From assembly GCA_035528415.1 (NCBI GenBank), contig DATKYQ010000040.1, positions 28,296 to 92,295 of the forward strand: a stretch of DNA of 64,000 bases. Reading direction: 5' to 3'. The stretch comes from Myxococcota bacterium. GTDB taxonomy: Bacteria; Myxococcota; B64-G9. How positions within the stretch are numbered: position 1 is the first letter of the stretch; each line of letters begins with the position of its first letter. The notes beneath the pieces are model-generated. The model was not told the DNA's origin, searched no databases, and saw only the letters and a program-made list of their open reading frames with translations. A program made the translations under genes and the position numbers. Shown here piece by piece: positions 24,751 through 47,321 of this stretch.

Positions 24751-24766
24751 GAACGGCTCCTTTTAA

Positions 24767-25078: not shown

Positions 25079-25097
25079 GATATTCTCCTTGGCTCTT

Positions 25098-25442
25098 TTA
25101 GATCAATCCATCGGGAAGGGGCACATCCATCTCGATGCCGCCCTTGAAACCCGCACCATCCTCGATGATCACGACCGGCGCCCTGATATCGCCGACCACC
25201 TTGGCGTTGGCCAGCACCGCCACACGTTCCGTAGCAGTGATGTTGCCGCTCATCTCGCCTCTGATCGTCAGACGCTCGGCCTCAATGTCGGCCCTGACGA
25301 CGCCGGTTTCCTCGATGGTCAAGTGATTCTTCAAAGAAATCTGCCCCTCTACCGTTCCTTCGATAATCAGATCCCCTCCACCGCTCAGGTTGCCCCTGAT
25401 AGCAATCCCCTTGCCGATAACGCCCGGTGGTTCCGCGGCCAT
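25098..25442 (-). CDS. Bactofilin
   Basis: 114 aa bactofilin core (IRGNLSGGGDLIIEGTVEGQISL..., VVIIEDGAGFKGGIEM). Confidence 0.85.
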   Translation of the reverse strand: MAAEPPGVIGKGIAIRGNLSGGGDLIIEGTVEGQISLKNHLTIEETGVVRADIEAERLTIRGEMSGNITATERVAVLANAKVVGDIRAPVVIIEDGAGFKGGIEMDVPLPDGLI

Positions 25443-26263: not shown

Positions 26264-27143
26264 GCTGCCCCAGCCAGGCGATCAGGTCGGCAACCACCTT
26301 GTCGCGCCCGACCTCGTTGAAGATCTCGTGGAAGTAGTCTTCGTAGAGCTGAAAGTTCTTGTCCTCGGATTGCGCCGCCTCGAAGAAATGGCGCGTTGCC
26401 TCGGCAGAGGCCAGCCGGTCGTCACCGGCTTGCAGTACCAGAAGCGGCAGCTTGATGCGCGTCACCTCGCGAAAGGCGTCCGCCTGGGCTTGCAGCACCT
26501 CGGTGAACCAGCGGGCCGATGCCACGTCGCTCACCAGGGGATCCGCCGCATAGCGTTCGCAGGCCTCCTGGTCGTGGCTCAAGACGGAAGGGTCGAGGCC
26601 GGATTTCAAAGACAGGGTCGGGAAAATGCCCGAAAGCAACCTGCCGGCCAGCGCCTTGAGCGTGGGCACCTTGAAGGCCATGTCCAGGAATGGAGAACTG
26701 AGCACCAGGCCGTTCAGATCGTCTGCGTCGCGCTCGCAGAACCTGGCGGCGATCAATCCGCCCAGCGAATGCCCCAGCAGGACGGGCTTGCCGCCGTAGC
26801 CCTCCTTTTCGATTTCGGCCAAGAAGCTTCCGAGATCGTCCAGGTAGCCCGTGAAACCGTCGATGTGCGCCCGTCGCCCGCCGCTCTGGCCGTGCCCGCG
26901 GTAGTCAAAGGCGGCCACCGACCAGCCGGCCCGGCAGATATCATCCGCCAGCGCCTTGTAGCGGCCACTATGCTCTGCGAAACCGTGCACCAGCGCAACC
27001 AGGCCCTTGGGTTCATCTGTGAACCAGCGCCTGAAGAAAAGTCGGATACCGTCAGGCGCGTTGAAGAAATGTTCTTGGTAGTCAGTTGCCAACGTTCCAC
27101 CTCCCGGGTGCCCGATAAGACCACGAGCGGCCCGCCTGGTCAA
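26253..27143 (-). CDS. Alpha/beta hydrolase, lysophospholipase / monoacylglycerol-lipase-like
   Basis: HGFAEHSGRY oxyanion region and GHSLGG nucleophile elbow. TTG start at 27143 in a TTGA overlap. An alternative TTG at 27092 has a GGAGG RBS. Confidence 0.7.
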   Translation of the reverse strand: MTRRAARGLIGHPGGGTLATDYQEHFFNAPDGIRLFFRRWFTDEPKGLVALVHGFAEHSGRYKALADDICRAGWSVAAFDYRGHGQSGGRRAHIDGFTGYLDDLGSFLAEIEKEGYGGKPVLLGHSLGGLIAARFCERDADDLNGLVLSSPFLDMAFKVPTLKALAGRLLSGIFPTLSLKSGLDPSVLSHDQEACERYAADPLVSDVASARWFTEVLQAQADAFREVTRIKLPLLVLQAGDDRLASAEATRHFFEAAQSEDKNFQLYEDYFHEIFNEVGRDKVVADLIAWLGQHGK

Positions 27144-27868
27144 ATGCCTTCGAAGATCAACTTGCCAAGCGACTTGCCCACTATTCTAACTTGCCACGGA
27201 TCGGAGACCGTTTTCAACTGCGGCAGGGCCGCGACCAGCTTGATAAACCCCACGGCGGAGATCAACCTGTCTACCAGCAACAGACTTGTAAGATAAGCCC
27301 TCTTGAGATCTTTTCTGCCGAGATCCCGCGCTCCAAGCTTGCCATCCAGTCTCCTGAGATCCTCACCATTCCGGGGCAGGCTGCAGGCATGGGCTGCGGA
27401 CAGGCCGGACTTCTGGCCAGCCAACCACTGGGCCAGGCCCTCGTCGAGCCAGCGCGGGCAACCGCGGCCGGCGGCACGTCTGACAATCCAGTGAACCAGT
27501 TCATGAGTCACAAGCGCCTCATGATTTTCGATCTTCCTAAGGGAGCGGACGGGCTGGGTAACGATCTCGTCATCGACAAGGGCGGCTCCCACGAACCACG
27601 GCCTTTTGCAGCGCTTATAAAAATCCCGCATGTCGCTACAGACATGAATTGTGATCGTCCGGCCGCGCTGCAGACCAAACAGGTGTTCGAAACTAGATAT
27701 CTTCAGGCAAGCTAGTTTACAAAATTCGTGCGCCGCCTTTTCCTGGGCCGGACTGCCGGCCACGGCCTCAACCCCGGCGCAGCAGTCGACGACGACAGGT
27801 GCGGCACGGCAAACGGACACGGCCGTGATCGATACGATCAAGGCGCAGATTTTCTTTTTCAAGGCCAC
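27140..27868 (-). CDS. Exported zinc metallopeptidase, peptidase-MA-like (HExxH...EG)
   Basis: THELVHW plus downstream WLDEGLAQW. Proposed GTG start at 27868 gives (M)ALKKKICALIVSITAVSVCRAAP, a signal peptide, and overlaps the SpoIID stop. The longer track ORF upstream lies inside the SpoIID gene. Confidence 0.55.
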   Translation of the reverse strand: MALKKKICALIVSITAVSVCRAAPVVVDCCAGVEAVAGSPAQEKAAHEFCKLACLKISSFEHLFGLQRGRTITIHVCSDMRDFYKRCKRPWFVGAALVDDEIVTQPVRSLRKIENHEALVTHELVHWIVRRAAGRGCPRWLDEGLAQWLAGQKSGLSAAHACSLPRNGEDLRRLDGKLGARDLGRKDLKRAYLTSLLLVDRLISAVGFIKLVAALPQLKTVSDPWQVRIVGKSLGKLIFEGI

Positions 27869-29052
27869 CTGCCAAGCTGTGTTCCGGGATAGTAATGTTC
27901 CAGGATCTTCCAAAAGTCGGCGCCCGCCCGCTCCATACCCATCGCACCGTACTGACACATGCCAATCCCGTGTCCCAATCCCCGTCCGTGAAACAGAAGT
28001 TCTTGGCCGCGTTTTTCCAGTTCGAAGCACGCGCTTTTGAACCTGCCCCAGCCAAACCATTTTCCCATCAACATGTGAAAGCGCTCGCCGCGCAACTCGA
28101 TCGCCGGGCCGGAGGCGCTGGAGATCGACACCCGGCTGACCCAGCCCTGCCTGCCGATCTTCTCGATGGCAAGCTTGCATTTTTTAAGCTTGCCTGCCCT
28201 GCCCAGGGCCGGAAACTGCTTGCCCAGCCGTCGGCACAAGCCCGCCTGCCCGATGCTGAAGGTCCAGTGCATGTGCGCCGAATCCGAACAATACGGCGGC
28301 CGGCCGTCCTCGACGCCCAGGAGGTACGGGCGCGCCGTCACAGGCCCCCATACATCGGCTGCCGAGGCGGTGCTTCCGGCGCAGGTGGAGAAATAGTACG
28401 TCCGTGCAGGTTTAGCGTCGAAAAGCAACACCAGTCCACGCGCCGCCGCGAGCGCCCGGCGCTGTTTCGGGGTACAGGCCTCGCGCCCGGTGTAGACCTG
28501 GCAGTGGGTCAGATCGCATAAATCGTACCCCGCCCCGGTGTGCTTGCCTGTCACACTCAGGGCGTAGCTGCGCGAGGCGACGGCCTGCGCACGCAAGGCT
28601 TCGGGACCGCCGGGTCGCATCTCGTGGCAAGCCACCGACTGGACGTAATCTTCGAGCGCTACGTGGTTGAGCAGCCGGCAAACGTCACTCGCCGGCCGCA
28701 CCTCAAGCCAGCCGTCGTAGACGCGAAGCGGCCCGCCCGCGACACCGGCCCGCAGGCCGTCGCGGCCGTGGCCGGCGGCGGTCCGCACTTCGAATCGCGC
28801 GGAGCAGACTCTTTTCTTTTCATGCCTTACGCACAGCAATGCACTTGCAGTGCAGCGCGCATCAATAGCGTTTGTCACGAATACTTGCCGCCTGCCGTCG
28901 GCCGCCACTGCCGTGACTGCCAGCGGGAGGCTGTTAGTGCTTTTGATCGAAACCCGTTGCGGCTTGAATATGCCGAACAGGCTGATGCTCACCTCGCGCG
29001 CTTGGGCCCCCGGGACCGAAAGCAAGGCCATCGCTATGATCAGTGATCTCAT
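27859..29052 (-). CDS. SpoIID/LytB-domain protein (peptidoglycan remodelling)
   Basis: Signal peptide. ALEDYVQSVACHEM, ALRAQAVASRSYAL, YFSTCAGSTASAADVW, GRGLGHGIGMCQYGAMGMERAG. Confidence 0.85.
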   Translation of the reverse strand: MRSLIIAMALLSVPGAQAREVSISLFGIFKPQRVSIKSTNSLPLAVTAVAADGRRQVFVTNAIDARCTASALLCVRHEKKRVCSARFEVRTAAGHGRDGLRAGVAGGPLRVYDGWLEVRPASDVCRLLNHVALEDYVQSVACHEMRPGGPEALRAQAVASRSYALSVTGKHTGAGYDLCDLTHCQVYTGREACTPKQRRALAAARGLVLLFDAKPARTYYFSTCAGSTASAADVWGPVTARPYLLGVEDGRPPYCSDSAHMHWTFSIGQAGLCRRLGKQFPALGRAGKLKKCKLAIEKIGRQGWVSRVSISSASGPAIELRGERFHMLMGKWFGWGRFKSACFELEKRGQELLFHGRGLGHGIGMCQYGAMGMERAGADFWKILEHYYPGTQLGRWP

Positions 29053-30086
29053 GGTTTCCTCAGCGGAACGCCGCAGGCAGTCATGGCCTGGTAGGCGGCG
29101 GCGATGATCTTTTTCGCCAGTGCGGCGGCTTCCTTGGATCCCGTCCCGTCATGCACCAAGACCACCAGCGAGAGTAACGGGCGGCGATCGGGGGCAAATC
29201 CCATGTACCAGGCGTGTGTCCTCCAGTTGACGTTGCCCCAGGCGGCGGTGCCGGTCTTTCCAGCCAAGTGCAGGTCGTAAAGTCGCTGGGCCTGGCCGGT
29301 GCCATAGATGGAAGCCTGTTCCAGGGCATCGCGGATGAAACGCAGTGCCGCAGTATCTTTGAGCTCGCCCCGCACCGGCGTCGGCCCCTGGCCGGGATCC
29401 GCCATACGCGGACTGTACAGCACTCCCCCGTTGGCCACGGCGGCCACCGCGCTTAGCACCTGCAAGGGAGTCACGCGCAGGCCATCAGCCTGTCCCGTGG
29501 CCATGCGGGCCGCTAGGCCGGCCGGCGGCCAGGAGGGCAGGCTGCCGGACACCTCGCCGCCGAGATCCGAGCCGGTCACCCTTCCCAGGCCGAACTCGCC
29601 TGCCGCGCGCAGCAGGGGCGTCACACCGATGCGCCTGCCGATGCGCGCGAAGTACAAGTTGCAAGACAAGGCCAGGGCTTTTGACAGGTTGACCGGCCCG
29701 TGCCCTCTTCTGAGCCAGCAATCGACCTCGGTGCCCGGCGGACCGATGGTCGTCTCGCCTCCCGGGCAGGTGTATGTTTCCGATGGATCGACCAGGCCCG
29801 AGCGGGCCGCGTAGGTGGTGATCACCTTGAAAATGGACCCGGGTTGAAAAGATCGCCCGGCGAGCGTCTTGCGATTTTTGAGCCACAAGATCCTCCCGCT
29901 GTGCGGATCCATCAGGGCGAAGGCGTCGCGCTGGTTCGATCTTACGACTGAGGCAGACAATTCGCCAAGCTTTGCCGACAGGCAAACCCGTTCGCTGGGG
30001 CTCAGTTGCCTGACCGCGGCGCCTGAGCTGAGCGGGACCAGGAACGCCGCCAGGAAGACGAGAAAACTATTTTCGCGTCCGGGCAT
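29049..30086 (-). CDS. Penicillin-binding transpeptidase-domain protein (no glycosyltransferase module)
   Basis: Signal or anchor segment. SxxK (GSIFKV), SxN (LSCNLY) and KTG (GKTGTA) motifs in the canonical order. 345 aa. Confidence 0.8.
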   Translation of the reverse strand: MPGRENSFLVFLAAFLVPLSSGAAVRQLSPSERVCLSAKLGELSASVVRSNQRDAFALMDPHSGRILWLKNRKTLAGRSFQPGSIFKVITTYAARSGLVDPSETYTCPGGETTIGPPGTEVDCWLRRGHGPVNLSKALALSCNLYFARIGRRIGVTPLLRAAGEFGLGRVTGSDLGGEVSGSLPSWPPAGLAARMATGQADGLRVTPLQVLSAVAAVANGGVLYSPRMADPGQGPTPVRGELKDTAALRFIRDALEQASIYGTGQAQRLYDLHLAGKTGTAAWGNVNWRTHAWYMGFAPDRRPLLSLVVLVHDGTGSKEAAALAKKIIAAAYQAMTACGVPLRKP

Positions 30087-31593
30087 TGCCGCCCCTCTTG
30101 GGCGCGGGCCTTTTCGAACGGGTCGCCTTCTTCCTCTTGCGGATCTTTCTCTTCTTCCAGCGCTTGGTCTTGGCCCATTTGACCTGCAGATCGATCTTCT
30201 CGCCTTCGTTTATTTGCCGGTGATAGCTCTTCGACTGGCTGCGCCCAGGCCGGCGCGCCTCGATCACGTGACGACCTACGACAAGCGGCAGCTCTTTCAA
30301 AGGCGCCAGTCCCATGCGTCTTCCATCGACGTAGATCTCCGCCCGCCTGTCCGAATCGACCGATAAAAAGCCCTTGGGCCCCGGCCACAGCAACAGCGTC
30401 AGGCCGGCGCCGCCAAGCACTATGGCGCAGGCTGTGAGCAGCACCAAACTCCTGCGCCATTTTCTCTTTTTCTTGCCGGAATGCTTCACGGCCGGCAGTT
30501 TGGGCGCCGTCACCATCTCGGATTCGCCGGGCGGCCGCACGGGGTTGGGAACCTCCAGCGGCTCGACCAGGTCAAGAAGATCGTCCAGATAGAACTCGCG
30601 GGTATGATCGTCGCCGCCCTCGTCCGGTGGCAGGAACTCGTCGAAATCTCCCGGAGTAGTCGCCGCATGCGTGCGGTCGTACAGGTTGCTCCTGGCTCGC
30701 TCACCCAGTGCAGCGGACGTCCGCCGCCGCCCCTGATCAACGAAAAACGGCGCTAAAACGGCTGCGAAACTATCCCCGTCAGGGTAACGGTCGTCGGGAT
30801 CCTTGCAAAGGGCACGCTCGACGACCTTGTCCATGGTCCTCGAAATGGACTCGACAATGCTGCTCGGCGGCGGCGGGTCGAGGTTGACTATCTTGTCCCA
30901 GATGTCCTGCGGCCCGACCCCCATAAAGGGGTTCTCCCCGGTCAGCAATTCATAAAGCACCACCCCGAGCGAGAAGATGTCGGCCCTGCCGTCGAACTCG
31001 AAGCCCTTGACGTACTCGGGCGCCATGTACTCGTACTTACCCTTGAGCACTCCCGGCCGGGTGAAGCTGGCATACTGCGTGGCCTTGGCGATGCCGAAAT
31101 CGGTGATCTTCACCTGGCCATCGCAGCCGACCAGGATGTTTCCCGGACTGATGTCGCGGTGTACGACCGGCCCGCTCTTCTCGCCGCGTCGCGAGACGCC
31201 GGCATACGAGAGACCCATGGCCACTTCGTGCACGGCGAAGGCGACCTCGGGAATCGACAACACCAAATTGCCGGGGGCCTGAAGCATAACCAGTTCTTCC
31301 AGGTCGAGGCCCTCAAGGTACTCCATCACGATGTAGTAGTAGGATCCGAAGTTTATCAGATCATAAGTGCGGATTATATTGGGATGGTCCATGCTGGCGG
31401 CGATCAGGGCCTCGTTGACGAACATGCCGACGAACTCGCGGTCGGCGCTCAGCCTGGGAAACAGACGCTTGATGGCAACGGTGCGGATTCCTCCGTCATC
31501 CAGGCTCTCGTCGGCCTTGAAGATCTCGGCCATGCCCCCCTTGCCGATCTTTTCTCTCAGCCGATAGCGGCCGATGTGTTGACCCGTCTCCAT
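30067..31593 (-). CDS. Ser/Thr protein kinase with TM segment and extracytoplasmic PEGA domain
   Basis: GKGGMAEIFKA...AIKRL, HRDISPGNIL, DFGIAK, APE. TM helix LVLLTACAIVLGGAGLTLLLW. PEGA-like GFLSVDSDRRAEIYVDGRRMGLAP. Basic C-terminal tail. Confidence 0.9.
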   Translation of the reverse strand: METGQHIGRYRLREKIGKGGMAEIFKADESLDDGGIRTVAIKRLFPRLSADREFVGMFVNEALIAASMDHPNIIRTYDLINFGSYYYIVMEYLEGLDLEELVMLQAPGNLVLSIPEVAFAVHEVAMGLSYAGVSRRGEKSGPVVHRDISPGNILVGCDGQVKITDFGIAKATQYASFTRPGVLKGKYEYMAPEYVKGFEFDGRADIFSLGVVLYELLTGENPFMGVGPQDIWDKIVNLDPPPPSSIVESISRTMDKVVERALCKDPDDRYPDGDSFAAVLAPFFVDQGRRRTSAALGERARSNLYDRTHAATTPGDFDEFLPPDEGGDDHTREFYLDDLLDLVEPLEVPNPVRPPGESEMVTAPKLPAVKHSGKKKRKWRRSLVLLTACAIVLGGAGLTLLLWPGPKGFLSVDSDRRAEIYVDGRRMGLAPLKELPLVVGRHVIEARRPGRSQSKSYHRQINEGEKIDLQVKWAKTKRWKKRKIRKRKKATRSKRPAPKRGGNARTRK

Positions 31594-31611
31594 TGCAGTG
31601 AGTACTGCCTC

Positions 31612-32331
31612 CTATTGCCCGCTGACGTCGAAGACGCCTACCTCCTGAATGTCTCCGGTCTTGGTCAGGATCTTGTGAAACTCCAGCCGGCGCTCCCTGT
31701 TGGTGCCCTCGAACAGCACCACCTGAATGCGCACCTTGGTCTGGGGATGTCCGTGACTCGAGAAATACTTCACCTTGATCTGGTATTTACCGCTGAAGGC
31801 ATTTGCCAGCGTGAAGACCTCTGGGCCGAAGCCGTCGGTATCGTCCACGTCCAGCTTGCCGCCCATCTTTGTCAGCCGGTGCCCGTAGTAGCACTCTTCG
31901 CTCGAGGGATCGATAACGTGAAGATCGACGTCGGTTCCGTCGGTATCCCAGCTCAGGATGACCTGCATGTCGACGGGGGGCACGTCTGAAAAAAAAGACA
32001 CGCTGTCACGGCCCTCGCCGGATTCGTTTTCGGCCACTACCTCGATACCGTTGGCCCCCCTGGAGACGACGATGGTCGCCGCGAACTGCCCGCCGTTGAC
32101 ATCAATGCTGCGCTCGTAACCATTCACTACCAGGGTAACCCTGGCGAGCGATTCGTCGCTGACCGTGCCCTTCAGCTCGATGATGCGGCCGGTAGACCAG
32201 CCTCCCCTGGGTTGTACGATCTCCACCGTGGGCGGCTGGTTGTCGGCCGCTCCATCGGCCGCCCCATCGGCCGCCCCGGCGCCCAGCGGCAAGAGGCACA
32301 GCCACAACGCGAGTGTCATTGTGCGTCGCAT
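31612..32331 (-). CDS. DUF2135 / YfaP-like exported protein
   Basis: Start at MRRTMTLALWLCLLPLGAGA. C-terminal region ILSWDTDGTDVDLHVIDPSSEECYYGHRLTKMGGKLDVDDTDGFGPEVF, as I remember the YfaP family. Sits directly downstream of the A2M gene. Confidence 0.55.
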   Translation of the reverse strand: MRRTMTLALWLCLLPLGAGAADGAADGAADNQPPTVEIVQPRGGWSTGRIIELKGTVSDESLARVTLVVNGYERSIDVNGGQFAATIVVSRGANGIEVVAENESGEGRDSVSFFSDVPPVDMQVILSWDTDGTDVDLHVIDPSSEECYYGHRLTKMGGKLDVDDTDGFGPEVFTLANAFSGKYQIKVKYFSSHGHPQTKVRIQVVLFEGTNRERRLEFHKILTKTGDIQEVGVFDVSGQ

Positions 32332-32335
32332 GGTC

Positions 32336-35300
32336 TCAGTCCTCGATTTGCACAATGCCGCTGGCCGAGTTGCCGCCAAACTGCGGATCGTACATCGGTA
32401 GTACGCGAGCCGGCATGACACGGAAGACGCCCGGTACAGCGGCGCGAACCAGATAGGCAATCTTCCTGCGTCCCTTTTTCAGTCTCGAGATGAAGAAAGC
32501 CACATGCTGATCACTGATTTCGCGGTGCAATCCCGGCTGGCGTAGTTCGTAACCGGGCAGCGCGTAACCATGATCGCTCTCGATAGGCTGTACACCGGCC
32601 GGCAGGGGATCCTCGATCATCACGTAGTCTGTGTTCTGCGCCGCGGCGATCTCCAGCACAACAAGCAACTCGTCTCCCGGGGACGCCTTGCCCGCAAGCG
32701 GCTTGGTGCGAAAACGCCAACTTTCGCCGACCAGCGTCTTGTCCAGCGCGAACATGCTGCGCCTGATGCGCAAGCGTTCCCCTTGCGCCGTGATTTGCTC
32801 TTGGCGGCCGAAGTAATTGATGGCCACGTTGTAGAAAAGCACGCCCTTGCCCTGGCGGCTGATATGCACAAGGTTTTTACCGATTCTCGCCGGGGCGTCC
32901 CGTAGCAAGGTCACGCTCGGCTTGAAAACGTCCTCAGGGCCGAAATCCTTCTTCGCCCGTTGCTGGTCGTTCAGAACCAGGTCGACCCTGGCCAGGTATT
33001 CAGCGGCGCCCTGCTTTTTCAGGTAGTCGACCAGCGAAAAAACCACCATTGCCGTGTCCCGGGTCGAATGCCAGCGGTCTCCCTGGCGGACAGACATAAG
33101 CCAGCGCACCGCCTGGCCTATGTTCAGGCTGCCAGGCTTCAGCGTCACCAGGGCGCGCAGCGCGGCGGCCGTGGTTTCCACCGGATCGCTTTCCCAGCCC
33201 GGGCCTCCCCGGTCGTCGCCCCACCAGGCCCCATTGGCGCTCTTGTTGACCGCCAGGTCTATCCGGCCGGTCAGCGCCACGGCGGATTCCTGCTTGCCCA
33301 TTTCCAGAAGGGCCATGGCCGACAAGGCCTGGCCGTAGACCGAAAGATTTTTGTCTCCGGCGACTTTCTCGACCATCGACCCGTACTTCACGCCTGCCAG
33401 GGCCAGGCTGTAGAGCAAGTAGGAGCGCTGGTTGGCATTCAACTGCGGGCTTTTTACCAGGGCCTTGAGTCGGTTCGTTCCACGGTCGAGCATGTCCGCA
33501 TCGACGGGCCACTTCAGGCTCTTGGCCAACGCCAGGCCGGACACGACGTAGGCCGTCATGAAGGCATCGGTCGAGTCGTCCGACCACCAGCCCCAGCCTC
33601 CATCCTGGTGCTGCAACTGTCCCAGGTGGGCCAGCCCCGCGTGTATAAAGCGCGGCAACTCGTCCTCGAGACGCTTGTTCTTCATGCCCAACTCCTGAAG
33701 CGCCCGGGCAACGACCAGGTCGGGCAAGAAACGGTTCATGGTCTGTTCGGTGCAGCCGTATGGGTAACCAGCCAAATATCGTAGCGAGTCCAGCAGCGCC
33801 GGCGCTATACCGCTCGACAACGTGACCGTCGTCGATGCGCTTTTCGGCCTGGCCGCGTCCGGGACGGTCAGCGTTATAGACGTCTCGGGAGTTTGATCGT
33901 CCAGTGTTCCCCCGGCCAGCAAGTGCTGTTGCATTCCGTAGGGGCGAAGCGGAATCTTGCGCTCGAGCGAGTCGGAAGCGCCGTCCGATACCGCCGAGGC
34001 CCGCAGAACTGCCGTACCTGACTCCTGTGCCTGCGCCTGGAAACTGGCCAATCCCACACCCCGGGGCTTGACCTCCAACTTGACGGGCTCGCCTGAAATG
34101 CGCAACTTGTGCCCATCGGTTTGCAAGCTGGTCGTAAACGTCCTGGTCTTGTCCGTGTAGTTGTGAACCAAGACCCCGATGGTCGCCAGGTCATGCTCCA
34201 CCAGGAATGTCGGAGCCGCCAGGCGCGCAACGACCGGCTTTGTGACCTGCATCTTGCCGGCCCCCTGGCCCACCCGCGTGTCGGCCGTGATGACGCGCGC
34301 CGAGGCGCGCCAGGTGGTCAGGTTATCGGGAGCCTTCAACTTTGTCCGGGCCTTGCCCTCGGCGTTGGTGACCAGGTGCGGGTACCAGGCGAGCGTATCT
34401 TTGAAGTCGCGACGCACCTGGTTGGCGGCCAGGTTCTTGAAAGAACCAGGCACGACGGGGCTGCGCAAGGTGAGCGCGGCCATGCGATCGCGTGAGTCTT
34501 GTCCATAGCCGTAGAACCTGAAGTCGGCAGAGCACAGCGCACGAACGTTGTTGCGCTTGCGATGGTAGAAGAACTGCGAGATCGGCACCGCAAGCTCGGG
34601 GCTGATCCCGTAGATTGCCTCGTCGACGATTCCCAAAGCCACCTCCGCTCCCGCGACCGGGTGCCCCAGGTTGTCGGTCACACGCACCTCGAAGCCGATC
34701 TCATCGCCGGGCTCGGCGAATTGCCGCTCGGCATGGACGGCCACGGACAAAAGCTTCCGGCGGGGCGGCACGACCACGTCGAGGCGCCGCTCGTAAAGCG
34801 TGTGATCGAAAACCGTAGCCAGCCTGACTGTGAAGTTGGGTGTCTGCGCCTCGGCAATCTTGACCTCGAAAACGCGCGAGAATCCCCGTGCGGGCGCCGC
34901 CTCGGCGCGGTACAGGCGTCCGCCTTCGACGGTGAACAACAGGTTAGCGTCGGCGTGCGGCGTGAGCACCAGAAAGCGCGCCTTGTCGCCAATTCCATAG
35001 CTGCGCCGGTCGGCGATGATGCGCAGTTCGTCGGGAGAATATGGAATGTCCCCGCCGTTACTGGTCACATACAACGTGGTGCTGCACTCGACCCGTTGGC
35101 CTTGCGCGTCGGCCGCCTTGGCCGTCACCTTGTAACTGCCTCCCTTGGCCGGCGTAAATAAAATGACGTTCTCGCCCTTGGGCCCGGTGGAGATGCGCCG
35201 CGAAAGGATCCTTTCGCTGGTGGCCTTGGACGGTTCAGCGCCTAGTGTGGCCGTGACTTCGACATCCACGTCGGCCGCGACGGGGTTTTTGTCGTAATCC

Positions 35301-36940
35301 GTGCTGGAAAGGCGAATCCGGGCCTGTTGGCCGGGGCTGAACAACAGTTGCCGCGGTTCCAGCGCCAGGCGGAACTTGGCCCGGGTGACGCGTACCGAAC
35401 CGTGGCCGCTGACCGCCTGGTTGGAGGCGTCAGTGACGATCGCCTCGATGCCGTAGGTGTAGTCAAGGCTCTCGGGCAAAGTCTCGAAGTCGAACTCGAA
35501 GCGGCCGTCCTTGTCCAGCCGGCCTTCCTTCTCGATGATGGTTTCGCGGATGGTGCTCTGGTACTCGGCGTCGGAGTAGTACCAGGAATAGTCCGCATCG
35601 ATCCACCAGGGAATGTAGAAACGGGTCCGGAAGACGCTCAGCTTGACCTTGGCGCGCGGTACGGGCGGACCGAAGTAATAATTGGCCGTAACCCGCGCGG
35701 ACACTTTTTCTCCGCTCTTGTAGGCCTTCCTGGGCGTCGACAGCTTCACCCGGTACTCCGGCTTGCGGTATGCCTTTACCTTGAATTCTCCGCCGTACTC
35801 CTTGCCGCCGACCTCGGAGATCAATTGGTAAGTGCCCTTAGCGGCGTTATCGAAAATATCGAAGCGACCGTCGAAGGAACCGCTTTTTCCGATCGCCAGG
35901 CTGTCGGTATAGATCTCCTGTCCGTTCGGGTCGCGCACGCTGACCGTGGCTAGTTTCAGGCCGGGATCGATCCGGTAGCGCTCATCCACGTAGTCGCGGA
36001 CGACTCCCTTGAAGAAGACCGCCTGGCCCGGTCGATAGACCGGCCGCTCAGTGGTCAGATAAACCTTGCGCCCAAAAAGGCCGGCGGGATGGTAGGTTGG
36101 ATCGGCCAGCGCGAAATCCCGGCCGCGAGTTACTAAAACAACCAGGGAGCGTTCCAGGGGGATGTCTTTCGACCATAAGCCGTCCGAGCCTGTTTTGCCC
36201 CGGCCGATTTCGTTGTCGCCGTTGTTGACGACGATCGCCGCGTCCTCGACGGGAGAGCCCAGGTCGGGATCGACGGCGTAGACCAGGATCTTGTCCGGGC
36301 TTTGCCGGGTAAGAACGATCATTCTGGAGATGATCACCATGGTGTAACCAATCTCGTTGCCGTGGATGCCCTGGACCAGATAGACGCCTGGTTCATGTGT
36401 ATTGATTTTCACGTCCAGGTAGGCCCATTCGGGTGAACCCGGCGGGATCTCCTCGCGCCAGCTGTCTGCCAGATCGAGATCCTTAATGAAAGGCACCACG
36501 GTCGTCATCGCCGACGCGGGAGCGATGGATTCTTGCAAATCTTGCAGCTGCCCGCCGAAGGCATCCCGGCCGGCCGCACGGGCCTTGTCTGAAAATCCCT
36601 CCCGCATTTGCCGTATGCCTGCCTGCAACCCGTCGCGCCACAGGCCCCCGAGTACGTCCAGGCTGTTCATGCGCGCGGGGGCGTTTTTCATCTCGATCCG
36701 GTGCAGGTTGTCCTGGTGGCCGAAGAACTTCAGCGGATCGGTCACGCGGTAGAGCCGGAAGTCCACGTAGGGCAGGCTCCTGGCCTCCAGGCGCACGTGA
36801 ATATCGCTCTCTTCGGGCGAGAATACCCGTTCGGTTGAGAGGTAGAATCTCGGCTGCAGTGCGCCGGCCGCGCTCGACATACCTAACAAGGCGACCAAGA
36901 CGGCTGCCACTTGGCACGGGATAATGACTTTTTTTCTCAT
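32336..36940 (-). CDS. Bacterial alpha-2-macroglobulin family protein (YfaS-size, 1534 aa) with CxEQ thioester motif
   Basis: Start ATG 36940 (MRKKVIIPCQVAAVLVALLGMSSAAG), in an ATGA overlap with the upstream stop. Thioester-region signature LAGYPYGCTEQTMNRFLP is encoded at 33743..33757. Length and MG-domain-like repetitive beta architecture fit the family. Confidence 0.9.
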   Translation of the reverse strand: MRKKVIIPCQVAAVLVALLGMSSAAGALQPRFYLSTERVFSPEESDIHVRLEARSLPYVDFRLYRVTDPLKFFGHQDNLHRIEMKNAPARMNSLDVLGGLWRDGLQAGIRQMREGFSDKARAAGRDAFGGQLQDLQESIAPASAMTTVVPFIKDLDLADSWREEIPPGSPEWAYLDVKINTHEPGVYLVQGIHGNEIGYTMVIISRMIVLTRQSPDKILVYAVDPDLGSPVEDAAIVVNNGDNEIGRGKTGSDGLWSKDIPLERSLVVLVTRGRDFALADPTYHPAGLFGRKVYLTTERPVYRPGQAVFFKGVVRDYVDERYRIDPGLKLATVSVRDPNGQEIYTDSLAIGKSGSFDGRFDIFDNAAKGTYQLISEVGGKEYGGEFKVKAYRKPEYRVKLSTPRKAYKSGEKVSARVTANYYFGPPVPRAKVKLSVFRTRFYIPWWIDADYSWYYSDAEYQSTIRETIIEKEGRLDKDGRFEFDFETLPESLDYTYGIEAIVTDASNQAVSGHGSVRVTRAKFRLALEPRQLLFSPGQQARIRLSSTDYDKNPVAADVDVEVTATLGAEPSKATSERILSRRISTGPKGENVILFTPAKGGSYKVTAKAADAQGQRVECSTTLYVTSNGGDIPYSPDELRIIADRRSYGIGDKARFLVLTPHADANLLFTVEGGRLYRAEAAPARGFSRVFEVKIAEAQTPNFTVRLATVFDHTLYERRLDVVVPPRRKLLSVAVHAERQFAEPGDEIGFEVRVTDNLGHPVAGAEVALGIVDEAIYGISPELAVPISQFFYHRKRNNVRALCSADFRFYGYGQDSRDRMAALTLRSPVVPGSFKNLAANQVRRDFKDTLAWYPHLVTNAEGKARTKLKAPDNLTTWRASARVITADTRVGQGAGKMQVTKPVVARLAAPTFLVEHDLATIGVLVHNYTDKTRTFTTSLQTDGHKLRISGEPVKLEVKPRGVGLASFQAQAQESGTAVLRASAVSDGASDSLERKIPLRPYGMQQHLLAGGTLDDQTPETSITLTVPDAARPKSASTTVTLSSGIAPALLDSLRYLAGYPYGCTEQTMNRFLPDLVVARALQELGMKNKRLEDELPRFIHAGLAHLGQLQHQDGGWGWWSDDSTDAFMTAYVVSGLALAKSLKWPVDADMLDRGTNRLKALVKSPQLNANQRSYLLYSLALAGVKYGSMVEKVAGDKNLSVYGQALSAMALLEMGKQESAVALTGRIDLAVNKSANGAWWGDDRGGPGWESDPVETTAAALRALVTLKPGSLNIGQAVRWLMSVRQGDRWHSTRDTAMVVFSLVDYLKKQGAAEYLARVDLVLNDQQRAKKDFGPEDVFKPSVTLLRDAPARIGKNLVHISRQGKGVLFYNVAINYFGRQEQITAQGERLRIRRSMFALDKTLVGESWRFRTKPLAGKASPGDELLVVLEIAAAQNTDYVMIEDPLPAGVQPIESDHGYALPGYELRQPGLHREISDQHVAFFISRLKKGRRKIAYLVRAAVPGVFRVMPARVLPMYDPQFGGNSASGIVQIED

Positions 36941-38013
36941 TGCCTGCCTCCAGCGAGGATCTTCCAACGGTAGAAACCTTCAAAACGAGGATTGTCCGGA
37001 CGCACGCGCCAGCGATCGTCCTTGTGTGTGCGCAGGGCAGTAAGTGTCACCAAGCGCACTTCCCCAGGCTCGCTGGCAGCCAGGCGACCGGTGTGATAAA
37101 CGACCCGCGGGCCGCCCGGTCGATCGAAGCGATCGAGGAGAATCATTGAATGCATCGGCTCGGGCTGCCTGTCCGGGTCGCGGAAAAACAGCAAGTCGCC
37201 GGGAAGAGCGTCTTTTACGTCCTTGGAGACGAAAACCGTGTTGTATTCCCAAAGGGCGCGCGCGGAGGCGGCCGCGGAGAAGTCTCGCACGACGTCGCCC
37301 GGAGCTTCCGGGCGCCTCGCATTCACCCTGAAGAGTCGATCTCCGATGATAGGGACTTGCGGGTAGTTATAGCGTCGCACGTCCTCAGAAGTTGCCTGGT
37401 GCAGGTACGGCACTCCGGAAAGCCAATTCGCATCGTGCTTTCTCAGCGCTTCCTTGTAGGCGAAGCGAATCAGACCGGCGCAGTCGTGATGGATCTCGGC
37501 CCAACGCGGATCCGGTCTGTAAAACTGCGCCTCGGCGATGGCCACAAACCAAGACCTGAAGGCACGCCGGTCCATAGCGTCGTTCAACTCGAGCTGATCC
37601 GGGATACCGTCGCCGTCGCGATCGCCGCTGTGGGACACAAGCTGCAGCCTGCGCTCCGTCGTGCGACCGCCCTCGTCGATCGCCAGGATCACCTCCCCGG
37701 GGTCTCCCTCGGCGCGCAAGCCCAACTCGAGAAGGGCCGGGCCCTCGCCGCGCGACGCGCGGCCGAGAAGCTTTACCCTGTCTGCGCCCTGGACAATGGC
37801 CACGCGGATCGTTTCGGGAAAGAACGGAACCGGGCTGCCGTAGACGTTGGTTCGCGACCAGACCAACTTGGCGCCGGCGCCGGAGTTGGCCGGCAAGCTG
37901 TCTGGAAAAAGTGTCAGCCTTCTTTTCACCGGAAGCATGACGCTGGCGGCAAAGACAAACAGCATCAGCAGCGCTCCCAGTGCGAGCGCCCAGATTTCCC
38001 GAGCGCGCCTCAT
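36937..38013 (-). CDS. DUF1175 / YfaT-like protein with NlpC/P60-like Cys-His signature
   Basis: N-terminal TM or signal segment. HHDCAGLIRFAYKEAL and PGDLLFFRDPDRQPEPMHSMILL resemble the NlpC/P60 catalytic Cys and His contexts. Position immediately upstream of A2M. Confidence 0.5.
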   Translation of the reverse strand: MRRAREIWALALGALLMLFVFAASVMLPVKRRLTLFPDSLPANSGAGAKLVWSRTNVYGSPVPFFPETIRVAIVQGADRVKLLGRASRGEGPALLELGLRAEGDPGEVILAIDEGGRTTERRLQLVSHSGDRDGDGIPDQLELNDAMDRRAFRSWFVAIAEAQFYRPDPRWAEIHHDCAGLIRFAYKEALRKHDANWLSGVPYLHQATSEDVRRYNYPQVPIIGDRLFRVNARRPEAPGDVVRDFSAAASARALWEYNTVFVSKDVKDALPGDLLFFRDPDRQPEPMHSMILLDRFDRPGGPRVVYHTGRLAASEPGEVRLVTLTALRTHKDDRWRVRPDNPRFEGFYRWKILAGGRQ

Positions 38014-39671
38014 TGCAGAGGCACCAGGTTGCCCCGTGCTCCGCCCTCGGCGACGACAATGCGCCCCCCGAGGCGTCCAATCTTCCCGAGCGCTTCGAAG
38101 AAAGGAACGACGGTCTCCTCGATGTCCTCGGCGCGGAAGCGAGAAGAGTGCTTGCCCGCCGCCCGGGAGAATTTCACCAGGTCATCGAACAGCAGGCCGC
38201 AATCGGCGTAAGCCAGCAGGAAACAGTGCGTCTCGCCGGCGGACAGCTTGTCCGTAAAATCGGGCAGGTCACGGATGGATGGCTGTTGACCGATGGCCGT
38301 CGCCGCAATCTTGCGCACGGCATCACCGCTGCTCCCGATGATCAGCCAGTTTTCGACGACGGCAAAAGCCGGGGCGAAACCGTGTCCTGGCGGCGATTCA
38401 TGGACGACGACGTCGGATTTACCCACAAGCGCCTTCTTGGCCGGCGGCTGCCCGAAGGAATAGCCGAAAAGCTTTTCCATGGCGCCCTCGACGCGGGCGG
38501 AATTCTTGGTTTCGAACAGCGCTGCCACGACCGGCAGCGGTTGTTTTCCAGCGCTGTCGACGCCCACGACGATGGCCGTCATCTGTGTGGACAGGTTGAC
38601 AAGCAGATCGCGCTCGATGTCCAGCCCCGCCTGCTTCTCGAAGGCAGGTGCGTTTTTCATACGCTTGCGAGCCTCTTTCCAGATTTGGCTAAGCCGGGCA
38701 TCCGCAAGCCCTATGACGATGCGTGAGTCGAGCGGCACGAGCTTGGCCGCCCCGAACGTCTCCTTCGCCGGGACGCCCGAGTTGTTTTTTTCGCCAGGCG
38801 CCGTGATCTGCAGGCGTGCCTTCGGGCCGGAGCTGAACCTGAATGCCAATAGGTTTCCGGGCAAAACGCCCTTGAGCCAGACATGTCCGTTATCCGAAAG
38901 CGGCTCTAGGTTCAACAAGGCTACCAGGTCGCCCGCCTGTCCCTTTTCGGCCAACACTCCCGCAACCCGCTGGTCCGCAAGCAAAGCTCCCTTGGGCTTG
39001 CCGCTGGCCAGTGCAGCGGCTTCGAGCAAGTACTCCTCCGAGTTCGATGCCAGCAGCAGGTTTGCGAAAAGCAGGTAATAGATGTGCGCTCCTCCGGAGA
39101 GGGAAAGGTCGCGCAGTCGAAGGCCGAAGACCTCTCGGCTCTCGATCACCCCCTTACGCGGAGTGATTTGGTTGAGCACCTCCGCCAGCCGGTCGAGCGC
39201 CTGCACCTTCAGGTCGATCTGCTTGACAACCAGTATATCGAATCCGTCTTTGCTCCTGCGCAGCGCAAGTCCCGAGGGCGTGCCAAGCAGTTTTTCAAAC
39301 TCGAGTTTACCGAGCGGCACGGCCGAGACCGACTCGAGCCGGTGACGCAGGCCGGACAAGCGCAGCAACATACCGCTGCTAAGCGCGTCCTGGATGGGCG
39401 GAGATTTCTCCAACTCGCGGAACCAGGTCTTGCCTGCAAGCCAGGAGAGCGCAGGCTGCAGGTCGGCCGCCAGCAGAACCAGCACGCTTTCCGAAGGGAT
39501 CAACCCGGACAGGCTGCCGAAGCTGGCGCCAGGCAGCTTGGAAACGGTAGAAAGATACCCCTTCTCGACCCGTTCCGGGGCCGAGGCTGCCTTATCCTTT
39601 TTACCGCACTTGCAGGCAGAGAACGACAGGAGTGCGATGCCAACGATCAACCAGCGCCCGGACAGACGCAT
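38010..39671 (-). CDS. DUF2138 / YfaA-like lipoprotein (assignment by size and position)
   Basis: Start ATG 39671 (GGAGG upstream) gives MRLSGRWLIVGIALLSFSAC with a lipobox. 553 aa. ATGA overlap with the DUF1175-like gene. I do not recognise a specific motif. Confidence 0.4.
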   Translation of the reverse strand: MRLSGRWLIVGIALLSFSACKCGKKDKAASAPERVEKGYLSTVSKLPGASFGSLSGLIPSESVLVLLAADLQPALSWLAGKTWFRELEKSPPIQDALSSGMLLRLSGLRHRLESVSAVPLGKLEFEKLLGTPSGLALRRSKDGFDILVVKQIDLKVQALDRLAEVLNQITPRKGVIESREVFGLRLRDLSLSGGAHIYYLLFANLLLASNSEEYLLEAAALASGKPKGALLADQRVAGVLAEKGQAGDLVALLNLEPLSDNGHVWLKGVLPGNLLAFRFSSGPKARLQITAPGEKNNSGVPAKETFGAAKLVPLDSRIVIGLADARLSQIWKEARKRMKNAPAFEKQAGLDIERDLLVNLSTQMTAIVVGVDSAGKQPLPVVAALFETKNSARVEGAMEKLFGYSFGQPPAKKALVGKSDVVVHESPPGHGFAPAFAVVENWLIIGSSGDAVRKIAATAIGQQPSIRDLPDFTDKLSAGETHCFLLAYADCGLLFDDLVKFSRAAGKHSSRFRAEDIEETVVPFFEALGKIGRLGGRIVVAEGGARGNLVPLQ

Positions 39672-40449: not shown

Positions 40450-40558
40450 CCACTCCGGTAGGAGCTCAGATTCCTGACATGGGGTCTCAGTTTTGAGATT
40501 CGTTTTTTCGAACCGGGATGACTTGCGCCCGTTTCGCCTTCTTTCGTACAATCAAAAG

Positions 40559-42094
40559 ATGAACGACAAGATCGCATGTATTGGTTGGGTTTTGATCCTG
40601 GTTGCATCGTGCTTCTGGTTTTCCTGTTCCGGTTCGATTGGCAGCAGCGGAGATTCCGGGCAACCGGAAGACGGTGACATCCAGGACGGCGACGACGGAG
40701 GGACAGCCGGAGACCACGGCGCCGACCCGGGTGCCGATCCGGGGTCGGATCCCGGCGCGGACCCGGGTGCGGACGCCGACGTCCAGTTTGTCACCAGCCT
40801 GACCGACCACGGAGTCACCTGGACATTTTCCGCACCGGCCCGGGTGGGCCAATTCATCACCGGGGACTACTGGGTGGTGGGCCCGGTCACGGTGAGCGCC
40901 ATCGATCCACCGCCTGGCAACGGGCGCAACGGGAGCGTCAAGAATATCCCGCCCTTCCAGAGCCAGAGCGGTTTCGACGACCGCACCCCGGGCAATCGTT
41001 TCGAAGAATCCTTGATGGCGACCCCGCCGATCGCCTTGGGCCCGGGCGACAGCCTGGCCTCGTCCATCTCGGTGGCGGTGCCCGGCCAAATGGACAACTG
41101 GCTCCGGGAGGGCAACGGAGAACAATCGGACTCACCCGTCTGGAGCGTCTCGATTCTCACTTGTCTCGACGCTCCTGCCCCGGACGATGCCTTCCGGCCT
41201 TCCTATGCCGACACGTCGAACCGGATCTACCGGTTCTCCGAAGTCAACCAGGCGTTGTTGCCGCAGTTGGCCCCGCCGGTAACCGTCGAGAGCGACTATC
41301 TTCAGATGTTCGCCGATCGTTTAATCCGCCCTTGGGTGGACAACCTGTTCTACGCTTTCGACGCCCAGGTGGAGTACATGGCCATGTATGGGCGGGAGCA
41401 GGGACGGATGGCCGGGATCGTCAGTCTGTTACTCATGCTGGAATTGCCGCCTGCCCAGCAGGAGGTTCGCGAGCGACTCTTGATTGGTTATGTCCAGCAC
41501 GGAATCGATCTCTGGGGCCTGGTGCGCGAAGGGTACCCGGGTTGGTATGCCCACGGGGGACACGGTTCCGGGCGCAAGTGGCCCGTCATCCTGGCCGGGC
41601 TTCTGCTGGGCGACGCTCAAATGGCCTCGCCCAGCGTGACCTACCCCGGGGTGCAGTTCGGCGAGGACATGCACACCGCGTTCGCCGACGCGCCGCCCTG
41701 GGGCCCGGCCTGGAACGGGGCCACTGTGATTTACACCGGGCACATGGGCCTCTGGAACAACCAGCCGGTGAGCGACACCCCCGGGTGGGGACCCTACGAA
41801 CACCTGCCGCCGGATCAATGGGAGGGAGATGGAATCGGCGAGGGCTACCGGCGGTGTTGCACCTCGATTGCCTGGGTGGGCCAGGCGCTGGCCGCCCGCC
41901 TGATGAACGCCCAGACCAACTGGAACCATGATGCATTCTTTGCCTATGTTGACCGCTGGATGGACCCGACCGGGGATGATGCCTACACCCAGACCATCTT
42001 CGATATGTCCGGTCTCGACTACCGGGCGAACTTTCAGCGCCAGGGCCAGGCCTGGGACAATTTTATCAACGAAATGTGGGCGACCTACCGGTAA
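40559..42094 (+). CDS. Hypothetical secreted protein or lipoprotein with acidic DPG-repeat linker
   Basis: Start at MNDKIACIGWVLILVASCFWFSCSG. Linker GADPGADPGSDPGADPGADAD. The 430-aa globular body has no motif I recognise. Confidence 0.6.
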   Translation: MNDKIACIGWVLILVASCFWFSCSGSIGSSGDSGQPEDGDIQDGDDGGTAGDHGADPGADPGSDPGADPGADADVQFVTSLTDHGVTWTFSAPARVGQFITGDYWVVGPVTVSAIDPPPGNGRNGSVKNIPPFQSQSGFDDRTPGNRFEESLMATPPIALGPGDSLASSISVAVPGQMDNWLREGNGEQSDSPVWSVSILTCLDAPAPDDAFRPSYADTSNRIYRFSEVNQALLPQLAPPVTVESDYLQMFADRLIRPWVDNLFYAFDAQVEYMAMYGREQGRMAGIVSLLLMLELPPAQQEVRERLLIGYVQHGIDLWGLVREGYPGWYAHGGHGSGRKWPVILAGLLLGDAQMASPSVTYPGVQFGEDMHTAFADAPPWGPAWNGATVIYTGHMGLWNNQPVSDTPGWGPYEHLPPDQWEGDGIGEGYRRCCTSIAWVGQALAARLMNAQTNWNHDAFFAYVDRWMDPTGDDAYTQTIFDMSGLDYRANFQRQGQAWDNFINEMWATYR

Positions 42095-42139
42095 ACCAAG
42101 AAGGGGTGCCAGGGAAACCGGAAAGACTGGCGGCGTTGA

Positions 42140-43240
42140 TCATCTCCGGCCGGTTGCGACCGTCAGATCGTCGACCCACATGGTCTGATCGACCGGCGAG
42201 CCGTCGCCGATGTAAATCGCAATCAAGAACTGGTTGAAGGCCATGTCGGGATGCTGCCCGGTGCGCATCAGGATCTGGTTGGTGTCGATGACCAGTTCGC
42301 CGTCGTACCAGTACTGGATCACCCCGTCGGGCAGGCCGACCCCGTTGACAATCGAGTTCATAGCGAAATACGACTCGATGAAATGCCAGTCATTCTTGTA
42401 GTAGTCGCCCGGCTCGTCTTTGAACATCTGTTCGGGCGAGTCCCAAAAGCGCGCGCTGTAGTACCCGTTGCCGGTCGAAAAGCAGTCGCGCCCGTCGACG
42501 TAGCCGACCAGTCCATTACATGAGCATACCGATCTCTGCTCGCTGAACTGGTAGTCGTCGAACGAACCGTTGCAGCCGACGAAAGTGTCGTTATTGAGCA
42601 GGATGCAGTTGAGATCGTTGTTCTTTGAATCTTGCAAAGCTATGCGCACAACCCCGCCGACTTGCTCGGTGTAGGTAGTCAAGTAACTGTAGGCCGGGCC
42701 GACCCAGCGATCGTCTTTATTAGTTACGAAGTGAAATTCGTGCGGGTGGTACGAGCGGCCGGAACCGATATAGTTGGCCGAGTACTTGACCCAGTAGCTT
42801 AGATAGACTGTTTCTGATTCGGGAAATTGCCTGCGCCCGGGCGTGCCGCCGGAACAGCCTTGAGCACCTGTGACAAAGTGGCATTCGAAAGACGAAGTCG
42901 ACCCGGGAATGTGTTCGCTGGTTGAAAGGTCACCCTGGGGTCCGTCGTACCAATCACGCGAACCGAAATCGTCATCTTCGAAGTCTTCGAAGAAGAGCAC
43001 CGTCGACGGGCCGGGATCTCCACCGGGATCGGAGCCCTGGTCGGCACCCGGGTCAGCGCCCGGATCGGAGCCGGGATCAGCGCCGGGATCAGCGCTCGGA
43101 TCGCCGCTGCCGCCGTCATCAGCGTCATTATCGGCATCGTTGCTCCCGGCATCACCATCGTTGATCGAGTCTCCAATGGAGCCTTTACAGGCGCTGAGCG
43201 AAAAACAGATCACAAAACAGAATAAACCAAATGATTTCAT
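42140..43240 (-). CDS. Hypothetical lipoprotein with acidic DPG-repeat linker and beta-sandwich-like (lectin / glucanase / polysaccharide-lyase-like) body
   Basis: Lipobox SLSACKG. Linker SADPGADPGSDPGADPGADQGSDPGGDPG. The fold guess rests only on composition and the C-terminal ...MWVDDLTV style ending. Confidence 0.55.
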   Translation of the reverse strand: MKSFGLFCFVICFSLSACKGSIGDSINDGDAGSNDADNDADDGGSGDPSADPGADPGSDPGADPGADQGSDPGGDPGPSTVLFFEDFEDDDFGSRDWYDGPQGDLSTSEHIPGSTSSFECHFVTGAQGCSGGTPGRRQFPESETVYLSYWVKYSANYIGSGRSYHPHEFHFVTNKDDRWVGPAYSYLTTYTEQVGGVVRIALQDSKNNDLNCILLNNDTFVGCNGSFDDYQFSEQRSVCSCNGLVGYVDGRDCFSTGNGYYSARFWDSPEQMFKDEPGDYYKNDWHFIESYFAMNSIVNGVGLPDGVIQYWYDGELVIDTNQILMRTGQHPDMAFNQFLIAIYIGDGSPVDQTMWVDDLTVATGRR

Positions 43241-43400
43241 GTGTTATTCCGCGCTTCGAGTGGGTTTGTCCGTTGGTGGGAAAAGGTTAACATATCTGGC
43301 CATGCTTTGGCAATTGCCCCCAGCTAGATCTGCTCGTGCTGTGAAGGATGACATTCGCCTTGGGCGTGTGCCATCATGAGCACCTGAAAGGAAACAACCC

Positions 43401-47310: not shown

Positions 47311-47321
47311 CGGGTACCTCG

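Follow-up and report, generated by a model that had tools for sequence, protein, structure and literature searches.

A macroglobulin operon with a thioester motif in a Myxococcota bacterium is probably a typical member of the Mag/Yfa system

The alpha-2-macroglobulin (A2M) locus described here, from a 64,000-nucleotide (nt) stretch of an uncultured Myxococcota bacterium (contig DATKYQ010000040.1; the whole stretch is called the window, and positions follow its numbering), is probably an eight-gene periplasmic envelope-defence operon that represents a non-proteobacterial form of the Mag/Yfa A2M system, and a typical representative of it rather than a hybrid. The operon comprises eight minus-strand genes at about 27140..39671, including one for a predicted transmembrane Ser/Thr kinase (Table 1). 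The published two-type scheme ties the thioester of bacterial A2Ms to pbpC and the thioester-less form to the mag operon (PMC5764988, PMC3735191, PMC12663445). An earlier reading of the sequence (the original prediction) had started from the same dichotomy and proposed that four genes of this locus form a yfa-type neighborhood in which a thioester motif and a nearby penicillin-binding protein (PBP) gene mix the hallmarks of both types, as a hybrid or ancestral system. In this study, a core of MagC, a thioester-type A2M, a transpeptidase (TP) protein and a SpoIID protein was found to be conserved across phyla, and the TP, SpoIID and HExxH proteins of the window are homologous to YfaQ/MagE.

Results

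The predicted GCTEQ motif is present exactly as described, on the minus strand, and the expectation that its Cys and Gln lie in a thioester-domain context was borne out by alignment, structure model and structure search. The motif matches that of the Escherichia coli A2M ECAM residue for residue (gYPYGCTEQT in the window, aYPYGCLEQT in ECAM). In an AlphaFold model of residues 1000-1534 (pLDDT 93.3, pTM 0.90), the Cys starts a helix in an alpha/alpha toroid that is followed by a beta-sandwich. Foldseek matched this model to native CD109, A2ML1, A2M, ECAM and Sa-A2M with query-normalised TM-scores (TMq) of 0.69-0.78 and probability 1.00, compared with only about 0.4 for activated C3b or trypsin-activated ECAM. 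The model thus resembles the native, thioester-shielding conformation, and CxEQ sits within a genuine thioester domain (TED). As modelled, and with Pfam matches to MG2, A2M_BRD, A2M, TED_complement and bMG10, the protein is a member of the thioester-containing/A2M superfamily with MG domains, a bait region (its coordinates calculated from the gene start), a TED with CxEQ and a C-terminal MG/RBD domain; the intramolecular thioester bond itself is putative. Its N-terminus (MRKKVIIPCQVAAVLVALLGMSSAAGALQ) reads as a signal peptide with no lipobox before a Cys.

The sequence comparisons place the window A2M with the YfaS/MagD lineage, apart from YfhM. BLASTP aligned it colinearly with the intact YfaS of E. 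coli SE11 over residues 32-1131 (E 4e-70), with YfaS PWGGVINT opposite PYGCTEQT, whereas the match to YfhM was partial (residues 605-1177, about 1e-29). A phylogenetic placement relative to YfhM and YfaS had been proposed as a check on the original prediction. In a neighbour-joining tree built from 1416 columns and 98 proteins (50 bootstraps, rooted on YfhM), the window A2M groups with the MagC-linked A2Ms of Myxococcota, Acidobacteriota, Armatimonadota and others in one clade (49/50), the sister of which is the gammaproteobacterial YfaS/MagD clade (50/50), with YfhM outside both. The A2M of the closest public relative (L008:11047-15681) reads YPYACTEQ, with Gly changed to Ala directly before the thioester Cys.

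To what extent a thioester motif is unusual in this setting can be judged from 185,579 species genomes, which were scanned with DUF1175 as the anchor and returned 579 loci. The loci examined were the best 80 of the 579, those most similar to the query, plus two further loci; the survey set consists of the 68 loci with at least 1300 amino acids (aa) of A2M adjoining MagC. All 68 of these A2Ms, which come from other genomes in several phyla, carry CxEQ, and the preceding YPYG is likewise conserved. GC[TV]EQ is present in 118 of the 120 closest A2M homologs. Of 72 full-length proteins closely homologous to E. coli YfaS (Gammaproteobacteria, about 55% identity), 32 have YPYGCVEQ, including the A2M of Pseudomonas knackmussii B13 (L089), where the genes follow the canonical magABCDEF order YfaP-DUF2138-MagC-A2M-DUF2300-YfaP. 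The syntenic mag operons of P. knackmussii (L089:8001-12548, YPYGCVEQ) and P. nitroreducens (L090:8001-12554, PWGGVEQ) form a natural thioester-plus/minus pair.

Thioester-positive and thioester-negative Pseudomonas A2Ms are interleaved in the tree, and the Enterobacterales YfaS homologs have a more decayed GGV(I/V)N; loss of the thioester therefore looks recent and repeated. Going by these sequences, the Mag-type lineage looks to have had the thioester ancestrally, with recent, repeated loss in Gammaproteobacteria, and this is the only, rather weak, sense in which the word "ancestral" of the original prediction holds. YfaS and MagD, which have no thioester, are derived members of the lineage to which the window A2M belongs. 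The statement that type II lacks the thioester is a description of MagD and YfaS, not of the lineage, for which it is an oversimplification: the dichotomy is what the literature states, but it fails as a rule for the lineage. A missing thioester is a poor defining feature of the Mag/Yfa type, because it does not hold for genuine mag operons, the one in P. knackmussii B13 among them. In literature found by DUF names plus macroglobulin, no description of thioester-positive Mag-type clusters was encountered.

The one inaccurate point among the observations of the original prediction is the apparent lack of a YfaQ-like gene. It is true that DUF2300 gave no match in any gene of the window locus. 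E. coli K-12 YfaQ (L006:3149-4798, annotated as "tandem DUF2300") matches Pfam SpoIID above the cut-off and the window SpoIID protein with E 2e-4. In profile comparisons by hhalign, YfaQ matched the SpoIID profile with probability 97.4% (E 1e-11) and TP-SpoIID fusion proteins with probability 80.5% (E 1e-5) over 490 colinear columns; the match to a TP-only alignment was weak (probability 20.6%). Across 47 YfaQ sequences, S60-x-x-K63, S108-C-G, K195-T196 and HEYLH are all invariant. With the AlphaFold model of YfaQ (pLDDT 82.6) as query, each of the top 50 matches in the Protein Data Bank (PDB) was a serine beta-lactamase or a PBP TP domain. When the YfaQ profile was run against PDB sequences, a weak SpoIID match (E 0.13) and no PBP match were obtained, the PBP fold being visible in the structure model only. 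YfaQ/MagE thus appears to be a compact TP-like/SpoIID-like/HExxH fusion with an N-terminal beta-lactamase/PBP fold and a SpoIID-like middle. In literature found by the same search terms, the nature of YfaQ was not described.

In the window, the YfaQ equivalent is split into three separate genes (30086..27140). Besides a signal peptide, the TP protein has only a Transpeptidase domain, with the motifs S84xxK, S141-C-N and K277-T-G; it also matches NCBIfam pbp2_mrdA (E 9e-48), the match being limited to the TP part. A PBP gene two genes downstream of the four-gene cluster had been predicted, and a transpeptidase-domain gene does lie there, but as a type-I hallmark it does not serve, as it is TP-only and part of the YfaQ-homologous module. 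The candidate identity of this gene as pbpC was ruled out, since the 345-aa product is a transpeptidase without a glycosyltransferase domain; a phmmer search with E. coli PbpC gave no window match that reached E 1e-3. The SpoIID protein retains the Glu of the HEM motif. By phmmer, the window HExxH protein corresponds in more than 50 loci to the last ~120 aa of a SpoIID or TP-SpoIID protein, and it is the equivalent both of the C-terminal domain that is fused to SpoIID in other phyla and of the HEYLH end of YfaQ. Among the 68 surveyed loci, the TP gene is present in 55 and SpoIID in 59, and TP and SpoIID are fused as a single protein in five loci (L003, L022, L046, L078 and L084). Most of the Acidobacteriota loci L016-L069 (e.g., L004:15306-17635) have SpoIID and HExxH fused into a protein of about 600 aa, and in most Acidobacteriota loci the SpoIID-HExxH gene and a separate TP gene are on the strand opposite to MagC-A2M. 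The window carries in separate genes the three modules that YfaQ appears to combine. We regard the locus as a complete Mag-type system rather than a mix of the two types.

All four genes of the predicted cluster (31612-39671) were recovered on the minus strand at those positions, and the E. coli yfa cluster has homologous genes in that order. The predicted family assignments of the flanking proteins stood for DUF1175 and DUF2135 in standard tests; for DUF2138, the assignment would hold only as remote homology. The MagC-like protein matches Pfam DUF1175 (E 5.6e-64) and the solved MagC structure (PDB 7bk8, E 1.6e-23) and carries an N-terminal extension of ~130 aa. Its Asp177-Cys178 and His288 are invariant in the alignment used for this purpose (A1), in agreement with the predicted Cys/His signature. 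The YfaP-like protein scores 23.7 bits against Pfam DUF2135 (cut-off 22), with an additional Glucodextran_B match, and BLASTP aligned it with E. coli YfaP (E 8e-32). Just past its signal peptide is the segment GAAD-GAAD-GAAD, encoded by a 12-nt tandem repeat of 2.9 copies (window 32243-32277).

The 553-aa protein, whose N-terminus (MRLSGRWLIVGIALLSFSAC) contains a probable lipobox, had no match in Pfam (DUF2138 included) or NCBIfam, and BLASTP found no similarity to E. coli YfaA. A library-wide phmmer search yielded 81 relatives, and 28 of 67 aligned relatives matched Pfam DUF3352. A single profile-profile match connects this family to the DUF2138 (YfaA/MagB) profile, by hhalign over 460 columns with probability 94.4% (E 9e-8). 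The label "DUF2138-like" thus appears to be true in the sense of remote homology only. In acidobacterial clusters, comparison of the open reading frames (ORFs) beside MagC and A2M with the MagB-like and YfaP families detected no homology.

The Ser/Thr kinase has, by inspection, a C-terminal hydrophobic segment near residue 390 followed by a PEGA-like tail, which suggests an extracytoplasmic sensor part. A weak NCBIfam LIC10124_lipo match covers residues 408-474 of this tail. The kinase occupies the same position in the relatives L008-L011 and is conserved in Myxococcota-type loci only (8/68).

The junctions of the first four genes (two ATGA overlaps and a 4-nt gap) are compatible with the translational coupling that had been predicted. 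A scan for promoters and terminators was uninformative (3 promoter-like sites where 2.8 are expected), and Rfam and tRNA scans found no RNA genes in the window. With PADLOC, the Ser/Thr kinase had only generic kinase-domain matches and the other seven proteins had none, which offers no support for a known anti-phage system. The closest public relatives are metagenome-assembled genomes of Myxococcales; in L008, the MagC homolog next to the A2M is 96% identical to that of the window. The same architecture is found in a Myxococcota-like locus (L003) and an Acidobacteriaceae locus (L004).

Table 1. Genes, sequence features and gene junctions of the macroglobulin operon in the window
Feature	Position	Strand	Assignment or evidence
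Probable lipoprotein, 553 aa	39671..38010	minus	Remote MagB/YfaA (DUF2138) homolog, DUF3352-related
MagC/YfaT-like DUF1175 protein, 358 aa	38013..36937	minus	NlpC/P60-like; Pfam and PDB 7bk8
A2M of the YfaS/MagD lineage, 1534 aa	36940..32336	minus	Pfam, BLASTP and tree
Predicted A2M bait-region domain (aa 648-787)	34580..34999	minus	Pfam A2M_BRD, E 9e-12
A2M thioester motif G1062-C-T-E-Q1066 within YPYGCTEQT	33757..33743	minus	Direct sequence reading
YfaP/MagA/MagF-like protein, 239 aa	32331..31612	minus	DUF2135 C-terminal domain and Ig-like domain
Ser/Thr protein kinase, 508 aa	31593..30067	minus	Pfam Pkinase, E 5.8e-43
Secreted transpeptidase-only PBP-like protein (TP), 345 aa	30086..29049	minus	Pfam Transpeptidase, E 5.7e-43
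SpoIID/LytB-family protein, 397 aa	29052..27859	minus	NCBIfam SpoIID_LytB, E 3e-53; Pfam SpoIID, E 7e-19
HExxH (HELVH) protein, 257 aa	27913..27140	minus	phmmer; weak Peptidase_MA_2 match; gene called in L001/L002
Junction 553-aa lipoprotein/DUF1175			ATGA overlap
Junction DUF1175/A2M			ATGA overlap
Junction A2M/DUF2135			4-nt gap
Junction DUF2135/kinase			18 nt, GGAGG before the kinase
Junction kinase/TP			20-nt overlap
Junction TP/SpoIID			ATGA overlap
Junction SpoIID/HExxH			55-nt overlap

The genes that flank the operon are housekeeping genes (glyS, pyruvate phosphate dikinase, bactofilins). The bactofilin genes are three in tandem on the minus strand (window 24211-25442, from the L001 gene calls), directly downstream of the operon region. 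On the other side, three adjoining genes at 40493-44873 encode probable secreted proteins or lipoproteins with Asp/Pro/Gly-rich N-terminal linkers (DPGADPGSDPGAD...), which derive partly from 12-nt tandem repeats at 40724-40774 and 43023-43103; these genes match no Pfam family except for a weak chlorophyllase-like match in the third. A pair of large neighbouring ORFs (795 and 437 aa) lies on the minus strand at 44923-48635; both have N-termini of signal- or lipoprotein-like character, and neither matches a Pfam family.

Discussion

By analogy with ECAM, Sa-A2M and MagD, the system could work as follows. The secreted A2M would have three anchoring or stabilising partners that hold it at the inner membrane and cell wall, namely the MagB-like lipoprotein, the YfaP-like protein and a MagC-like protein that binds peptidoglycan. 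A foreign periplasmic hydrolase that cuts the bait region would trigger a conformational change in the A2M, upon which the buried Cys1063-Gln1066 thioester would acylate the intruder and trap it covalently. The transpeptidase, the SpoIID-type glycan-strand enzyme and the HExxH domain may then remodel or repair the damaged peptidoglycan, and the predicted membrane Ser/Thr kinase may link the trap to signalling, a role that is speculative. This mechanism fits the report from 2025 that the mag operon shields P. aeruginosa from peptidoglycan-targeting type VI secretion system (T6SS) effectors (PMC12663445).

Several observations weigh against reading the locus as a typical envelope-defence operon of the Mag/Yfa kind. 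Thioester formation, protease trapping and the enzyme activities are predicted for this organism from sequence and models. The MagB-like label depends on one profile-profile match. DUF1175 has been reported as catalytically inactive yet peptidoglycan-binding (PMC10318531), and hence the conserved Cys and His need not imply activity. The accessory gene set is not uniform, with acidobacterial clusters having no detectable MagB-like or YfaP-like genes, and the kinase may fall outside the system because it is limited to Myxococcota-type loci and these genomes are kinase-rich. The 80 loci kept from the scan are the most query-like, which leaves the Proteobacteria under-sampled, and many of them come from fragmented metagenome assemblies. 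The tree is a neighbour-joining tree with one outgroup sequence.

It is very unlikely that the locus is a rare hybrid or relic with type-I hallmarks, namely a thioester and a PBP neighbour, in a type-II yfa neighborhood. The idea draws on the published scheme, which ties the thioester to pbpC and its loss to the mag operon, and on the locus itself, where a CxEQ motif and a transpeptidase gene are found together. The survey shows that the thioester is the rule among MagC-linked A2Ms, as the original prediction itself had foreseen could undo the hybrid idea if thioester-positive A2Ms proved common in yfa-type clusters, and it is present even in a canonical Pseudomonas mag operon. The window A2M is far closer to YfaS than to YfhM and has no YfhM-style lipobox, and the PBP-like gene, lacking a glycosyltransferase domain, is homologous to the N-terminal domain of YfaQ and is not a pbpC neighbour. 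It is also improbable that CxEQ is kept for structural reasons, with no working thioester and with non-covalent trapping as in MagD. MagD does trap TEV protease after bait cleavage without a thioester (PMC5764988), and Pseudomonas A2Ms alternate between GCVEQ and GGVEQ from species to species while little else changes, which suggests that the Cys is dispensable in at least some settings. On the other hand, Sa-A2M requires its thioester for trapping (PMC5764988), CxEQ and the preceding YPYG are conserved throughout the survey set and its several phyla, nearly all of the closest homologs keep the motif, and the A2M model has a native-like, thioester-shielding form.

A cell-wall remodelling or developmental module (e.g., for myxobacterial cell-shape change), in which the hydrolases restrained by the A2M would be periplasmic ones of the cell itself and not foreign ones, seems an unlikely explanation too, in spite of the fact that SpoIID, the PBP-type transpeptidase, the NlpC/P60-like protein and the HExxH domain all belong to cell-wall-related families, that a Ser/Thr kinase is encoded within the operon and that three bactofilin genes are close by. 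The core also occurs in non-developmental lineages (Acidobacteriota, Binatia, Pseudomonas), the sole genetic test of a Mag operon indicates defence against incoming T6SS effectors (PMC12663445), and a bait region plus a thioester make a trapping device for proteases of unknown specificity. We thus retain the reading of the locus as a typical, non-proteobacterial Mag/Yfa envelope-defence operon. As a wider and more tentative proposal, which we regard as plausible though somewhat short of probable, Mag/Yfa systems may ancestrally have been covalent thioester traps coupled to peptidoglycan repair by TP, SpoIID and HExxH enzymes, with MagE/YfaQ a compacted fusion of the three that has an active-site Ser-x-x-Lys, and with the thioester-less MagD and YfaS as recent degenerate offshoots.

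It is important to note that the locus is an ordinary representative of a cluster present in hundreds of species, and the hybrid that had been claimed is no discovery. The rule that type II bacterial macroglobulins are without the thioester recurs in papers up to 2025, and the two-type scheme is too coarse. The apparent nature of MagE/YfaQ as a PBP-fold/SpoIID/HExxH cell-wall module provides a testable link between Mag-type macroglobulins and peptidoglycan repair, and the Pseudomonas thioester-plus/minus pairs can be used for comparative experiments. If an ancestral covalent trap with a repair module is true, it would explain why mag protects against peptidoglycan-targeting T6SS effectors, and clusters with intact separate enzymes would be a better model of the chemistry of the system.

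Comparison with known systems

Compared with MagABCDEF of P. aeruginosa, the window locus has matching families and order (MagB-like, MagC, A2M, YfaP/MagF-like), an A2M with a signal peptide, a bait region and no lipobox, and a MagE equivalent in the TP, SpoIID and HExxH genes. It differs in that its A2M keeps CxEQ and no magA-like gene is found upstream. P. aeruginosa MagB is a single-pass membrane protein, whereas its window counterpart is a remote DUF3352-like lipoprotein, and MagE is one gene where the window has three, which are apparently catalytically intact; in addition, a Ser/Thr kinase gene is inserted. The E. coli cluster yfaA-yfaT-yfaS-yfaQ-yfaP has homologous genes in the same order (YfaP 8e-32, YfaT 1e-27, YfaS 4e-70 and colinear). 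However, YfaS has GGVINT in place of GCTEQT, and YfaQ is one fused 549-aa protein with SCG/KTW instead of SxN/KTG. The mag operon of P. knackmussii B13 is likewise of the Mag type, in canonical six-gene form, and shares an A2M with the thioester motif YPYGCVEQ, but this A2M belongs to the gammaproteobacterial clade, and the operon includes true DUF2138 and DUF2300 genes as well as two genes of the YfaP type and lacks a kinase.

The more distant comparison is with E. coli YfhM (ECAM) or Salmonella Sa-A2M and PbpC. These A2Ms carry YPYGC(L/T)EQT at the place in the TED where the window A2M has its motif, and their TED-MG fold is similar and native-like; in this system, too, a protease trap is paired with a cell-wall enzyme. 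On the other hand, YfhM, a lipoprotein of 1653 aa, carries additional N-terminal domains and is far more distant in sequence, its partner is the bifunctional glycosyltransferase-transpeptidase PBP1c, and MagC, YfaP and MagB-like genes do not accompany it.

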